A stretch of 64,000 nt of DNA from Acidobacteriota bacterium. Its GTDB lineage: Bacteria; Acidobacteriota; Thermoanaerobaculia; Gp7-AA8. The position numbers and the translations under genes were made by a program. Under the pieces are notes generated by a model. It had not been told where the DNA came from, searched no databases, and saw only the letters and a program-made list of their open reading frames with translations. The stretch lies in the NCBI GenBank assembly GCA_034667465.1, contig JAXDJV010000013.1, forward strand, positions 188,303 to 252,302. The letters are read 5' to 3'. This document shows, piece by piece, positions 8,088-41,730 of the stretch (position 1 is its first letter; every line of letters begins with the position of its first letter).

Positions 8088-8165
8088 CTGTGCTGAGTGC
8101 AGAGTGCTGAGTGCTGAGTAAAACCGGTCCCCGACTCAGCACTCTGCACTCAGCACTCTGCACCT
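8088..8165. repeat. REP-like palindromic element, copy A (GTGCTGAGTGCAGAGTGCTGAGTGCTGAGT arms)
   Basis: Inverted repeat of GTGCTGA/GTGCAGA heptads around a 14-nt loop. Closely related copies occur at about 24665..24760 and 41637..41730. Confidence 0.7.
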
Positions 8166-8177
8166 TCGAGGTTTGAA

Positions 8178-9608
8178 ATGCCCGAATCCTTCGACATAGT
8201 CGTCATCGGCGGCGGTACCGCCGGCCTCGTCACCGCCTCCGGCTGCGCGCGGCTTGGGCGGCGCGTGGCGATGATCGAGCGGGAAAAGCTCGGCGGCGAT
8301 TGTCTCTGGACCGGCTGCGTGCCGACGAAGGCGCTGGTCGCCACGGCGAAGCTCGCCGAGCAGATGCGTCATGCCGATCGTTACGGACTCTCGGCGCATG
8401 CGCCGGACATCTCGCCGCGTGCGGTGATGGAATCGATGCGTGCGCAGCGGCGCGCCATCGAGCATCACGACGACCCGGAGAAGTTTCGCAGGCTCGGCAT
8501 CGACGTCATTGAAGGCGATGCGAAGCTCGTCGCTAGCAGCGAAGTGGAAGCCGGCGGACGGCGGCTGATCGCAAAAGACATCGTGCTCGCCACCGGCGCG
8601 CGAACGAACGTGCCGCCGATCGACGGATTGAAAGAAAGCGGCTTCCTCGATCACGTCTCCTTCCTCGCGCAGGATTCGTTTCCGGCCTCGCTCGTGATCC
8701 TCGGCGGCGGCTACATCGGCATCGAGTTCGCGCAAATCTTTCGCCGCTTCGGCTCGCGCGTCGTCGTCGTCGAAATGCTCGACGAGATCATCAACAAGGA
8801 AGATCACGATGTCATCGCGCGCGTTCGTCAGCTGCTCGTCGACGAAGGGATCGAGCTCCGCACCGGCTGGGCGGCGAAGTCGGTTCGCGTCGAAGGCGGA
8901 AAGAAAATCGTCCGGATCGAAAACAGGATCGGCGAATCGCAGGAGGTCGCGGTCGATGAAGTCTTCGTCGCTTCCGGCCGCCGCGGTAACAGCGAAAACC
9001 TCGGGCTCGAAGCGATCGGCGTGAACGTCGAGAAGACATTCGTCACGGTCGACAAATACCTTTCGACGAGCGTCCCGCGCATCTGGGCGTGCGGCGACAT
9101 TCACGGCGGTCTGCAATTCACGCATGTCGCCGCGTACGAAGCGGTGAAGCTCGTGCGCAACATGCTCTTCCCCGGCCGCTCGGCGGTCAGCTACAGCGAC
9201 ATTCCGTGGGCGCTCTATACCGATCCCGAAGTCGGCCACATCGGCATGACCGAATCGGAAGCGAAAGCGGCGCACGGCGACGACGCGGTGAAGACGTACA
9301 CCGTCGAAATGGCGGAAGTCGATCGCGCCGTCGTCGATCGCACGCCGGCCGGTTTCATCAAGTTCGTCTGCGACACGAAGGGTCGCATCCTCGGCGCGCA
9401 CGCGCTCTGCGCAAACGCATCGACGGTCATCGCCGAAGTCGTCCTCGCACGAAAGAAAGGGATGAAGATCGGCGACCTCGCACAACGAATCTCGCCCTAT
9501 CCGTCGCTCGCCGACGCCACGCAAAAAGCGGCGTCGCTCTATTACCAGGACCTCGGCAGCTCATGGCTCGGCGCGATCGGCAAACGGATCGCGGCATGGA
9601 GCCAGTAG
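8178..9608 (+). CDS. FAD-dependent pyridine nucleotide-disulfide oxidoreductase (Lpd/MerA-like class I)
   Basis: 'VVIGGGTAGL' FAD-binding fold. Redox-active 'CLWTGCVPTK'. Second NAD-binding fold 'LVILGGGYIGIEFA'. Dimerisation domain. Confidence 0.85.
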   Translation: MPESFDIVVIGGGTAGLVTASGCARLGRRVAMIEREKLGGDCLWTGCVPTKALVATAKLAEQMRHADRYGLSAHAPDISPRAVMESMRAQRRAIEHHDDPEKFRRLGIDVIEGDAKLVASSEVEAGGRRLIAKDIVLATGARTNVPPIDGLKESGFLDHVSFLAQDSFPASLVILGGGYIGIEFAQIFRRFGSRVVVVEMLDEIINKEDHDVIARVRQLLVDEGIELRTGWAAKSVRVEGGKKIVRIENRIGESQEVAVDEVFVASGRRGNSENLGLEAIGVNVEKTFVTVDKYLSTSVPRIWACGDIHGGLQFTHVAAYEAVKLVRNMLFPGRSAVSYSDIPWALYTDPEVGHIGMTESEAKAAHGDDAVKTYTVEMAEVDRAVVDRTPAGFIKFVCDTKGRILGAHALCANASTVIAEVVLARKKGMKIGDLAQRISPYPSLADATQKAASLYYQDLGSSWLGAIGKRIAAWSQ

Positions 9609-10234
9609 AATCCGCGACGATGCTCGTGCCGTTGTTGCTCGCCGCCACGCTGATCGTCGATCGCACGCACGGCGAAGTTCGCATCTCAGCCATCGTTCAG
9701 CCTGAAGCGATGTCGCGTCCGTTCGGCGTCGAAGGACATCACGCCGTGGTCTGGAGCGGCGGACGCGCGCGGCACTGGGCGCTGTTCGTCGCCGACGCCA
9801 GCGATCACGACGTTCGCGTCGCACTCGATTCGCTCGGCGCAACGCGCGGCGAGAACCTGACGCCGAAATCGTGGAACGATCGCGACGACGCGAAGAGCAA
9901 AGAGCCGGACAAGCGCGTCGAAGGAACGCCGATCGACGTCTTCGTCGAGTTCGGAAATCGACGCTATCCGCTTGCCGAGCTCATCACTGAAAAGAATCGC
10001 AGTGCGCCGGCGCTCGACTTTCGCTACGGCGGTAACGAGCGATTTCAGAAGGACTTCCGATCCGGGTGCATCATTTGCCTGTACTCCTGTCCCGGAGGCG
10101 CCGTCGGGAACCACGCGCACCCGATCCGCGACTACGTTCGCGACGGCGTCGTCTACTCATCCATCGCAAAACGACTTCCCCCGAAAGGGACCAAAGTCAC
10201 GATCGTTCTCAAACCACGACTGGAGAAAAAATGA
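9596..10234 (+). CDS. Hypothetical protein (possibly DUF3047-like; not verified)
   Basis: Internal ATG 'MEPVESATMLVPLLLAATLIV' overlaps the oxidoreductase stop. The longer listed ORF (9089..) is an Arg-rich out-of-frame extension. Good codon bias after 9596. Confidence 0.5.
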   Translation: MEPVESATMLVPLLLAATLIVDRTHGEVRISAIVQPEAMSRPFGVEGHHAVVWSGGRARHWALFVADASDHDVRVALDSLGATRGENLTPKSWNDRDDAKSKEPDKRVEGTPIDVFVEFGNRRYPLAELITEKNRSAPALDFRYGGNERFQKDFRSGCIICLYSCPGGAVGNHAHPIRDYVRDGVVYSSIAKRLPPKGTKVTIVLKPRLEKK

Positions 10235-40259: not shown

Positions 40260-41632
40260 CGCTCCCCCGCGTCGATGCCGTATTTTTCGAGCCGCCGGTA
40301 AAGCGCGGCGCGGCTGAGGCCGAGCGCTTCCGCGGCGCGCGAGATGTTCGCGTCGTAATGCCGCATGCACTTCTCGATCATCGCCTGCTCGATCTGATCG
40401 AGCGTCATCGCGCCCGCTTCCGGCAGCGCTTCTTCGCGCGACTCCGCCGACGCGACGTCGCGCACGGCGGCGAAATCGTCGACGTCGAGCGCGAGTCCGC
40501 CGCGAATCAATACAGCGCGCTCGATCAGATGACGCAACTGGCGAATGTTGCCCGGCCAGCTCTGTCCTTTCAGCCACTCCAGCGCGCGCGGCGTGATCGA
40601 GTCGACCTCGGCGCCGTACGCCTGGCTGGCGCGATGCAGAAAGTGCGCGGCAAGCGGCGGCACATCGCCGCGGCGTTCGCGCAACGGCGGCAGCGTGAGC
40701 GTGATGAGGTTGAGTCGATAGAGCAGATCTTCGCGAAACTCGCCGCGCGCGACGAGATCGGGCAGCACGCGGTTCGTCGCGGCGACGACGCGCACGTCGA
40801 CCGTGCGCGCGCGGCTCGATCCGAGCACTTCGAACGTCCGGTCCTGCAACACGCGCAGCAGCTTCACCTGCGACGACGGATCGAGCTCGCCGATCTCGTC
40901 GAGAAAGATCGTGCCGCCATCGGCCATTTCGAAGCGGCCTTTGCGATCCTGGCGCGCGTCGGTGAACGCGCCGCGCACGTGGCCGAACATTTCGCTTTCG
41001 AAGAGCGACGCCGAGATCCCGCCGAGATTCACTTTGACGAACGGGCCGCCGCGGCGGCGGCTGTTGCGATGGATCGCCTCGGCGACGAGCTCTTTGCCGG
41101 TGCCGCTCTCGCCGGTGATGAGCACCGAGGCGTCGGTCGGCGCGACGCGTCCAACGAGATTGAGGAGGCGGAGAACTTTCGGATCGCTGCCGATGATGTA
41201 CGAGAAATCGTAGCGTTCATCGAGCTCCGCGCGCGTCGATGATTCGACGGCGGTCGTCTTCGCATCCGCGAGTCCGAGTGCCGTCTCGATCGACTGCACG
41301 ACATGCGCGTTCGACCACGGCTTGGTGATGAAGTCGGCGGCGCCGCGCTTCATCCCTTCGACGGCAAGTGCGATCGAGCCCCACGCCGTCATCAGAATCA
41401 CCGGCAGCGACGGTTCGGCCTCGCGAATTTGCGAAAGGAGCTGCAGCCCTTCTTCGCCCGTCGTCCGCCGCGTGAAATTCATGTCCTGCACGACAAGGCG
41501 AGGACGCTCGCCGCGGATGCGTGCGAGCGCCTCGTCAGCCGTCTGCGCCGTCGCGGTGCGGTAGCCGTGCTGCTTCAGCAGCAACGCCAGCGAGGCGGTA
41601 ATGGACGGGTCGTCGTCGACGATCAGGATCAT
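40256..41632 (-). CDS. Sigma54-dependent response regulator (NtrC family)
   Basis: Receiver 'MILIVDDDPS...VQDMNF'. AAA+ 'LITGESGTGKE'. 'GAFTDA' GAFTGA motif. 'ESEMFGH'. C-terminal Fis-type HTH. Confidence 0.9.
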   Translation of the reverse strand: MILIVDDDPSITASLALLLKQHGYRTATAQTADEALARIRGERPRLVVQDMNFTRRTTGEEGLQLLSQIREAEPSLPVILMTAWGSIALAVEGMKRGAADFITKPWSNAHVVQSIETALGLADAKTTAVESSTRAELDERYDFSYIIGSDPKVLRLLNLVGRVAPTDASVLITGESGTGKELVAEAIHRNSRRRGGPFVKVNLGGISASLFESEMFGHVRGAFTDARQDRKGRFEMADGGTIFLDEIGELDPSSQVKLLRVLQDRTFEVLGSSRARTVDVRVVAATNRVLPDLVARGEFREDLLYRLNLITLTLPPLRERRGDVPPLAAHFLHRASQAYGAEVDSITPRALEWLKGQSWPGNIRQLRHLIERAVLIRGGLALDVDDFAAVRDVASAESREEALPEAGAMTLDQIEQAMIEKCMRHYDANISRAAEALGLSRAALYRRLEKYGIDAGER

Positions 41633-41636
41633 AAAA

Positions 41637-41730
41637 TCAGTGCAGAGTGCTGAGTGCTGAGTGCTGAGTCGAAAAGCCTTCGTGCCGGCCGGTTTGACTC
41701 AGCACTCTGCACTCAGCACTCAGCACTTTC
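41637..41730. repeat. REP-like palindromic element, copy C
   Basis: agtgcagagtgctgagtgctgagtgctgagtcg ... gactcagcactctgcactcagcactcagcact, between the FtsX permease stop and the regulator start. Confidence 0.7.

Follow-up and report, generated by a model that had tools for sequence, protein, structure and literature searches.

Heptad-armed hairpin repeats at stop-to-start junctions of an Acidobacteriota genome and in other bacterial phyla

Among long simple repeats, it is the heptamers that exceed expectation most strongly in many bacteria, and their origin and function are regarded as unresolved (PMC4692102, PMC4679880). The closest precedent for the elements described here comes from Xanthomonas and Nostoc, where the units GGGAATC and GGGGA(C/T)T, respectively, form dispersed intergenic tandem arrays of typically ~4 copies (Rehm et al. 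2015, PMC4692102). These arrays lie mostly between co-directional open reading frames (ORFs), most of them are transcribed, and each Xanthomonas genome contains 70-75 'convergent', i.e. inverted, pairs capable of forming a stem-loop. On the sense strand, the G-rich version follows or overlaps stop codons and the C-rich version sits upstream of start codons, and the authors invoke G-quadruplexes (PMC4692102). In the present study, we analysed a 64,000-nt stretch of an Acidobacteriota genome (contig JAXDJV010000013.1, positions 188,303 to 252,302; hereafter "the window"), in which palindromes with arms of tandem GAGTGCT or GAGTGCA heptads (GAGTGCW) fill gaps between genes. They very probably represent a dispersed family of heptad hairpins within the bacterial heptameric-repeat class.

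Like the repeats of Rehm et al., the GAGTGCT palindromes consist of head-to-tail 7-nt units, form convergent stem-loop pairs and obey a rule of position and polarity. However, their unit is unrelated, nearly all of its copies are paired in hairpins, it spans about nine phyla, and numerous families of units are found side by side and take one another's place at a single junction. Another comparable case is that of the TAACTGA repeats of Beggiatoaceae, Cyanobacteria and Bacteroidetes, for which no transfer mechanism is evident (MacGregor 2015, PMC4679880); they are intergenic, mostly end a few nucleotides from a start codon and contain stop codons in their unit. Yet, these are direct repeats (one inverted case in 170 sets), have a different unit and are unstructured as RNA. 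Besides, Mazel and colleagues reportedly described in 1990 the STRR heptamers CCCCAGT, TTGGTCA and CAACAGT from non-coding Calothrix and Nostoc DNA, with several families per genome. The GAGTGCT repeats resemble them as heptamer families of non-coding DNA with Calothrix and Nostoc among their hosts, whereas STRRs are said to be direct arrays rather than loop-containing palindromes and to be unreported outside cyanobacteria.

Heptad palindromes in the window

Inverted-repeat searches and Tandem Repeats Finder (TRF) delineated four palindromes of ~80-140 bp with arms of tandem 7-base units, as well as one array lacking an inverted partner:

8088..8165: site 1, GAGTGCW-heptad palindrome, arms 8090-8119 and 8134-8163 around the 14-nt loop AAAACCGGTCCCCG
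24531..24557: single-arm array, (AGTCCTG)x3.4 running into GAGTGCT (TRF, 24531-24554)
24668..24754: site 2, GAGTGCW-heptad palindrome, arms 24668-24700 and 24722-24754, 21 nt apart
26800..26936: ATGAGGC/ATGAGTA palindrome, arms 26800-26832 (left) and 26849-26936 (right)
41637..41730: site 3, GAGTGCW-heptad palindrome, arms 41639-41673 and 41693-41727, 19 nt apart

An earlier note on this DNA, made from its letters alone, had pointed out sites 1 to 3, all of which are present. The heptamer array that it saw in the leader of a TonB-dependent receptor gene exists, if slightly offset from the span of 24521-24552 that it gave; the palindrome at 26800-26936 had been overlooked. Allowing up to two mismatches, a two-heptad 18-nt motif (GAGTGCWGAGTGCWGAGT) matched 18 times in the window compared with 0 times in 100 dinucleotide shuffles. 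TRF assigned a period of 7 and 4.3-4.4 copies to every GAGTGCW arm. Within the three GAGTGCW palindromes the arms are 90-91% complementary in register, and sliding those of site 1 by one heptad renders them 100% complementary over 23 nt. The right arm of the 26800-26936 palindrome is expanded, comprising 5.9 copies of a 14-nt double unit. As none of the units (GAGTGCW, GAGTCCT, ATGAGKM) contains a run of three or more G, the G-quadruplex rationale is inapplicable to GAGTGCT, which belongs to the same architectural class as the Xanthomonas and Nostoc heptamers but not to the G-quadruplex subclass.

When the transcripts expected from the direction of the neighbouring genes were folded, sites 1, 2 and 3 reached -54.8 (z -7.9), -72.0 (z -7.8) and -66.9 kcal/mol (z -10.3), respectively, and the 26800-26936 palindrome -64.3 kcal/mol (z -10.7); none of the shuffled sequences folded as stably as these four. 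The single-arm array is unstructured (z -0.7), and one arm by itself is not self-complementary (-1.7 to -2.0 kcal/mol, z +0.6 to +1.2). The predicted folds of the palindromes place stop and start codons at the stem base, and that of 26800-26936 has the start codon of the downstream gene paired. Rfam 15 covariance models yielded no match at the gathering score anywhere in the window.

Gene context was taken from independent JGI gene calls of the 361-kb soil-metagenome contig and from Pfam. The neighbours most relevant to the palindromes are:

7690..8082, plus strand: yjbQ/UPF0047 gene, stop 5 nt before site 1
8178..9608, plus strand: Pyr_redox_2 (pyridine-nucleotide disulphide) oxidoreductase gene, start 12 nt after site 1
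26930..28267, plus strand: MBL-fold/rhodanese gene, ATG inside the last heptad of the 26800-26936 palindrome
40256..41632, minus strand: sigma54-dependent response regulator gene, start (ATG 41630-41632) 6 nt after site 3
41729..42976, minus strand: MacB/FtsX-type ABC permease gene, stop (41729-41731) abutting site 3

The 26800-26936 palindrome takes up all the space between two genes, from the stop codon at 26797-26799 that ends a 210-aa gene to the ATG at 26930 that begins the MBL-rhodanese gene, and site 3 the 96-nt gap from permease to regulator on the minus strand. Site 2 lies in the divergent region between the TonB-dependent receptor gene and pspA, ending 22 nt before the pspA ATG (24777), and the single-arm array precedes the receptor start (24512, minus strand) by 19 nt. 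All elements of the window stand just upstream of a start codon, and three of the palindromes begin 0-5 nt after the upstream stop. While the placement described in the earlier note is correct, what it called operon boundaries are, by the JGI calls, better termed stop-to-start junctions or 5' leaders.

One further sequence bears on site 1. Locus L108 (positions 1-42; Logan assembly SRR24887482, from another sample) has the identical oxidoreductase and ends exactly at the boundary between loop and right arm, suggesting that GAGTGCW palindromes break short-read assemblies. Strain-level heptad polymorphism at site 1 was not seen in L108, whose sequence stops at the loop.

Other features of the window are not built from heptads. 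An inverted repeat at 59948-60040 (GTCATCCCGAGCGTAGCGAGGGATCCGGGTGGGCGGGGC...), with 39-nt arms that are 97% complementary and 15 nt apart, starts 2 nt past the stop codon of an amidase gene (TAA 59944-59946) and is absent from all 142 loci fetched for this study. A GC-rich inverted repeat between gene ends at 38887-39001 has 47-nt arms, 87% complementary and 21 nt apart, and includes a stretch with a 24-nt period (38954-38999; TRF). At 12940-12980, a 20-nt near-perfect palindrome (TAAAGTCAACTTCGGGGGTC/GACCCCCGAAATTGACTTTA) lies between convergent genes, one deoxyhypusine-synthase-like and one of 676 aa, and constitutes the top terminator-like match of the window scan. Finally, Pfam identified a toxin-antitoxin pair of HepT-like and nucleotidyltransferase (MNT) proteins at 11275-11940 (12098-12755 in L107), unrelated to the repeats.

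Distribution, period and polarity

We searched 185,579 genomes, one per species, with a pattern requiring both arms, and at least 104 stretches matched. The same GAGTGCT arms are present in no fewer than 42 genomes, which belong to about nine groups at the level of phyla; this contradicts the lineage specificity suggested in the earlier note. The matches listed break down as follows:

Acidobacteriota: 17 genomes, 63 elements
Chloroflexota: 7 genomes, 19 elements
Cyanobacteriota, complete Calothrix chromosomes included: 6 genomes, 11 elements
Planctomycetota, including a 7.98-Mb Planctomycetaceae chromosome: 5 genomes, 8 elements
Pseudomonadota: 3 genomes, 3 elements
Actinomycetota, Gemmatimonadota, Nitrospirota and a 'deltaproteobacterium': 1 genome and 1 element each

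Single genomes contain at least 17 copies (a related acidobacterial metagenome-assembled genome, MAG), at least 15 (a Blastocatellia MAG) and at least 9, in line with the dispersed intergenic hairpin family that had been proposed from the window. Local G+C content of the loci ranges from 0.37 to 0.73; the arms stay constant across this range while the loops vary with host composition. No GAGTGCT palindrome was detected in viral contigs, a possible vector of horizontal gene transfer, and plasmid and chromid records (Legionella, Erwinia, Burkholderia, Kovacikia) yielded only single-arm (GAGTGCT)x7 arrays and no palindromes. Two such arrays, (AGCACTC)x7 or (GAGTGCT)x7 and both lacking an inverted partner, are located on plasmids of Erwinia sp. 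E602 (L142, 7989-8036) and Legionella antarctica (L141, 11984-12035). The former lies ~130 nt downstream of an IS110-family transposase gene; the latter is found in a 2-kb stretch that bears no annotation and has Tn3, IS1595 and recombinase genes around it. A literature search for the literal repeat sequence returned only two irrelevant eukaryotic matches, and repeats of this type are not mentioned in a survey from 2026 of RNA structures in cyanobacteria. Going by these and the Rfam searches, the GAGTGCT heptad hairpin is an undescribed and widespread family.

The family is part of a larger class. A generic detector for a tandem array followed by its own reverse complement, run over the 1.04 Mb of fetched sequence, called 143 periodic palindromes compared with 0 in shuffled sequence. 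They group into at least 39 unit families (e.g. CAGTGGT, CTGAGGA, AGAGGTC, CCGTGAA, GGGTGAA, AGTTCTT and CGGACAG), some of which are common to several phyla. Thirty-four of the 39 families repeat every 7 nt and three every 8 nt, and periods of 6 and 9 are found once each; arrays of period 7 numbered 231 in real sequence against 6 in shuffles, and those of period 5 were depleted. The 5' arm has more G than C in 30/39 families, fewer in 1 and equal numbers in 8 (p = 3e-8). Within the GAGTGCT family, the order was 5'-GAGTGCT...AGCACTC-3' in 112 cases, and the everted form did not occur among them (0/112). A palindrome has the same sequence on either strand, so the G-rich arm is the first to be encountered by transcripts or ribosomes no matter from which side they approach.

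Identical arms in genomes of 37-73% GC, with essentially unrelated loops, could mean that the heptads are multivalent sites for a protein conserved across phyla, be it S1, a Csp or CsrA-like protein on RNA or a DNA-binding factor. A single-arm array adjoining a start codon would fit such a reader, and similar proposals were made for TAACTGA repeats (PMC4679880) and Nostoc heptamers. However, dozens of unrelated units share the same architecture, the arms of a palindrome would be sequestered in duplex and no candidate protein was found, so we consider recognition of this kind highly improbable.

Gene context was also surveyed in a set of 110 GAGTGCT-family elements. Out of 96 classified contexts, 73 are co-directional, 13 divergent and 10 convergent, and four elements of the survey lie inside ORFs. 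The upstream stop lies a median of 5 nt from the element and no more than 10 nt away in 58 of 93 cases, and in 19 the ORF ends within the arm. These contexts bear on the suggestion of the earlier note that the hairpins may act as terminators or insulators, considered here as intrinsic (bidirectional) terminators or insulators at operon ends. The hairpins are GC-rich and very stable, the flanks of the 110 elements show a mild bias (A-rich left, T-rich right), and T-runs follow some copies in other genomes (e.g. L021). Yet, all four palindromes of the window lack a T-tract after the hairpin and are passed over by the terminator scan, three of them separate close co-directional genes and one sits in a divergent promoter region, and the survey revealed no enrichment between convergent genes (10/96). 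We therefore hardly credit termination or insulation as their role.

The arms also differ in what they offer to a ribosome. As the unit brings one TGA and the period is coprime to 3, a 5' arm can close all frames: in the GAGTGCT family, all three are closed in 155 of 222 strand-elements, while the 3' arm is open in all three in 204/222. No frame is open across the whole element in 176/222 strand-elements, compared with 47 expected. For the unit families at large, a stop codon is present in the 5'-arm unit of 23/39 and in the 3'-arm unit of 10/39. That the upstream stop might stand in exact 7-nt register with the TGA of the array was considered and dropped, the spacing judged by eye being 8-9 nt at three junctions.

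Site 3 departs from this pattern. Its GAGTGCA variant unit removes the in-frame TGA and so makes room for a mini-ORF (MKVLSAECRVLSQTGRHEGFSTQHSALSTLH*) whose ATG overlaps the permease stop (ATGA) and which ends 4 nt before the regulator ATG. In having such a spanning mini-ORF, site 3 recalls the MIRUs of mycobacteria, which, as reportedly described by Supply and colleagues in 1997, are 46-101-bp direct repeats that are placed between the genes of operons and whose start and stop codons overlap with those of adjacent genes. The GAGTGCT family in general, however, closes frames and forms hairpins, which MIRUs do not, and a relay ORF of this type was rejected as a general property, being true of site 3 only. 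The spurious ORF 'MKVLSAECRVLSQ' listed in the earlier note was likewise traced to site 3, on its minus strand.

Besides, two Nostoc loci (L056, 3641-3745; L029, 4953-5057) contain a GAGTGCT palindrome in frame within the mfd (TRCF) ORF. The insert falls between the UvrB-interaction and CarD/RID domains and reads ...AEFRVLSAELNSDSELSTQHSSLIEG... in both genomes. It brings to mind the Rickettsia palindromic elements, which Ogata and colleagues are said to have found in 2000 inserted in frame into ORFs. In addition, we observed a systematic annotation artefact: stop-free 3' arms make ORF finders lengthen real genes or produce spurious ORFs, as in the window (ORFs 26867..28267 and 41637..42038) and in L073 (~2990-3026), where a histidine kinase acquires the N-terminal sequence '...GTQHSALSTQH...'.

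Copying, colonisation and turnover

Loop sequences reveal how copies are related. Loop 8-mers are shared by 26 of 323 same-genome pairs against 1.4 expected (~19-fold, in both orientations), by 45 of 1795 same-phylum pairs against 7 expected, and by 22 of 2629 pairs from different phyla against about 9 expected (~2.4-fold). The loop of site 1 (AAAACCGGTCCCCG), for instance, matches L083 and the reverse complement of L049 (MAG RYN_27). Since loops recur between loci in both orientations, we take the elements to form a within-genome dispersed family. Had the genomes held no additional copies, the window elements would have been locus-specific hairpins rather than a repeat family, as the earlier note had foreseen; many further copies exist, with loops recurring far above chance. 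Variant heptads are mirrored between the two arms of an element (34 cases vs 20.6 +/- 2.5 and 7.0 +/- 2.5 under two nulls). The arms are of equal length in 51/110 elements and differ by one unit in 45/110, and the outer terminus has a preferred register, AGTGCT...AGCACT.

Change can be followed in close relatives. In L109, which shows full synteny with the window and proteins 89-94% identical, the single-arm array is exactly one heptad longer, and site 2 retains its position and arms with the loop swapped for a member of a loop family seen at other loci and in other genomes. Heptad copy number hence changes by single units. New sites get colonised, too: in L110 and L111, a palindrome of their own octamer family has arisen where the convergent genes for the MBL and cNMP-binding proteins overlap at their 3' ends, a site that is empty in the window, L109 and L112, and both genes now stop within the arms. 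L110 has three palindromes of this one family (CTGTTGAG/TTGAGCGG) in neighbouring gaps within 3 kb (5923-6000, 7341-7408 and 8304-8358).

Such dispersal invites comparison with repetitive extragenic palindromic (REP) sequences, to which the earlier note had likened the elements. On this reading, they would be moved in trans by a REP-associated tyrosine transposase (RAYT, of the IS200/IS605 type) whose gene lies at some other place in the genome. REPs and their assemblies (BIMEs and REPINs), which include species-specific families, are short, highly repeated, intergenic or intra-operonic and free of target-site duplications, and REPINs are inverted doublets that form hairpins (PMC3116915, PMC3733652), features that the GAGTGCT elements share. 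The dispersed, intergenic and palindromic copies, many per genome, the loops common to copies in both orientations, the preferred terminal register and the colonisation of new sites would all suit a RAYT. Enterobacterial palindromic units (PU/REP) were reportedly described by Gilson and colleagues in 1987 as species-specific repeats at conserved intergenic positions. Flanking direct repeats were no commoner than at random positions, at either tight or wide offsets, just as HUH-type enzymes would leave it. Two candidate target-site duplications, ATGA...ATGA at site 3 and GCTAC...GCTAC at the site gained in L110, were rejected as within chance or microhomology.

On the other hand, each REP is in itself an imperfect palindrome of 20-40 nt and, by the criterion of PMC3733652, has a conserved GTAG or CGTC tag at one end. 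GAGTGCT arms are tandem heptads that are not palindromic (about -2 kcal/mol for a single arm, z > 0), and the tag is absent from both arms and termini. Moreover, the coexistence of at least 39 unit families with one period and one polarity is hard to square with one RAYT per REP. A cognate RAYT gene typically has REPs on its flanks; gene calls and Pfam identified no RAYT or transposase in the window, and clustering of the ORFs within 2.5 kb of the 110 elements revealed no recurrent mobility gene; recurrent neighbours were histidine kinases, ABC transporters, proteases and similar families. On these criteria, mobilisation by a RAYT seems quite unlikely. As for the earlier label of elements akin to a MITE (miniature inverted-repeat transposable element), the arms do represent terminal inverted repeats; the lack of target-site duplications tells against it. 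Within 2.5 kb of the 110 elements, no autonomous insertion sequence was seen.

The most detailed record of turnover comes from orthologous versions of the junction between the 210-aa gene (ending ...TFEMxW[KR]*) and the MBL-rhodanese gene (starting M.LF.QFY), which were fetched with the MBL-rhodanese protein:

Window: ATGAGGC/ATGAGTA palindrome
L109 (85% identity) and L116: GACTGAG palindrome
L110 and L111: CTGTTGAG palindrome (period 8)
L113 and L125: GGGGACA palindrome
L114 and L115: GAGTGCT palindrome
L112: GC-rich palindrome
L122: short remnant
L123: empty, genes overlapping as ATGA

Several of these units are 1-2 substitutions apart (TGAGG-CA, TGAGG-AC, TGAGT-GC). Occupancy of this junction in the window, L109-L116 and L125 despite complete changes of unit and loop might indicate regulatory RNA hairpins under local selection (a coupling gate, an RNase III site or an mRNA stabiliser) whose sequence turns over. 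The conserved position of site 2 in L109, the stop and start codons at the predicted stem base with a paired MBL start codon, and the mirrored variant heptads are consistent with this view. In Nostoc, heptamers near start codons affect reporter expression, which was altered upon deletion of the heptamer repeat (preprint 10.1101/2022.06.06.494920). However, empty (L123) and remnant (L122) junctions exist, the genes beside the elements are unrelated and serve all sorts of functions, some elements lie in divergent or convergent regions or even in frame within mfd, and identical arms with shared loops at unrelated loci imply copying rather than independent local evolution. We hold locally selected regulatory hairpins to be rather unlikely as the explanation.

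The exchange of units at one junction could also mean that the repeats are written de novo, by transposase-independent synthesis in situ (a repeat being added at the two 3' ends of a break that are then joined, or slippage synthesis primed by a hairpin or driven by a nickase). If a G-rich repeat were appended to the 3' ends on either side of a break, the product would be exactly 5'-X(n)...rc(X)(n)-3'. One period and one polarity hold over at least 39 unrelated units, with never an everted form; the absence of target-site duplications and of a transposase, and the plain single-arm GAGTGCT arrays in Legionella and Erwinia replicons, would fit as well. Yet, shared loops imply that whole elements are copied rather than written anew, and no candidate enzyme was identified. 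Polarity can also arise from selection on translation, and single arrays close to stop and start codons obey that rule as well (PMC4692102). Taken together, writing in situ appears improbable.

Tolerance and maintenance of heptad hairpins

The elements are best explained as heptad-armed hairpin repeats, i.e. non-coding, non-autonomous repeats made of two inverted 7-nt arrays around a short variable loop. On the mechanism by which they are tolerated and maintained our view is tentative, at best evenly balanced, and we would call the favoured explanation as a whole, family and mechanism together, an open contest with neither side ahead. Within operons, the elements would be co-transcribed with their neighbours, and the hairpin would fold the insert away and join the upstream stop and the downstream start at the stem base. 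An insert of this kind may be tolerated, and possibly co-opted, at translationally coupled (ATGA-type) junctions, where it could serve as a coupling gate: on terminating, a ribosome would melt the base of the stem, in which the following start codon is sequestered. The order of a G-rich before a C-rich arm, the stop-bearing 5' arm, the open 3' arm and a period not divisible by 3 may reflect selection for harmlessness to the flanking genes on both strands. Upkeep within genomes would involve slippage during replication, template switches from one arm to the other and, between elements, ectopic gene conversion or copying, with no dedicated transposase of the REP type. Arm-to-arm template switching at quasi-palindromes is an established mutational mechanism. 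As the arms are palindromic, a donor is usable in either orientation, which agrees with the loop-sharing data.

Several points weigh against this account. Co-transcription, hairpin formation in vivo and the effect on coupling rest on inference, and copying could be by gene conversion or by transposition. Slippage and gene conversion alone do not explain why arms are identical across phyla while loops are unrelated; accounting for it takes either slow concerted evolution after horizontal transfer, a conserved factor that recognises the arms, or convergence towards a limited vocabulary of 'fit' units. That almost every relative carries a palindrome at the same junction points to a function or a hot spot, beyond mere tolerance. 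The survey distances stem from a crude ORF caller, and arms with stops in all frames would also truncate spurious ORFs, whereas the window cases and the orthologous junctions were confirmed independently of that caller. Besides, an account of polarity through Rho or the avoidance of Shine-Dalgarno sequences would be speculative, and cyanobacteria lack Rho (PMC12642595).

A bolder idea, which we consider unlikely, is that heptad palindromes are made or renewed by a conserved, transposase-independent process common to many phyla. Candidates would be a process that appends G-rich 7-nt repeats at the 3' ends on either side of a break, slippage synthesis primed by a hairpin, or a conserved factor by which heptad arms are recognised and copied. 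If true, the period of 7, the polarity, the lack of everted forms and the replacement of units would be signatures of a machinery and not of selection alone, and the STRR and heptamer repeats known since 1990 would be explained.

In practical terms, heptad palindromes appear to break short-read assemblies, create spurious ORFs and false N-terminal extensions and can shift annotated starts and stops. In summary, the present work extracts four general rules for heptamers outside the G-quadruplex type: a period of 7, the G-rich arm first, a stop-bearing arm followed by an open one, and placement at stop-to-start junctions with turnover of the unit. They weaken the case for G-quadruplexes as the explanation, point towards constraints that stem from translation and the structure of operons, and make the old problem of heptamer repeats more testable.

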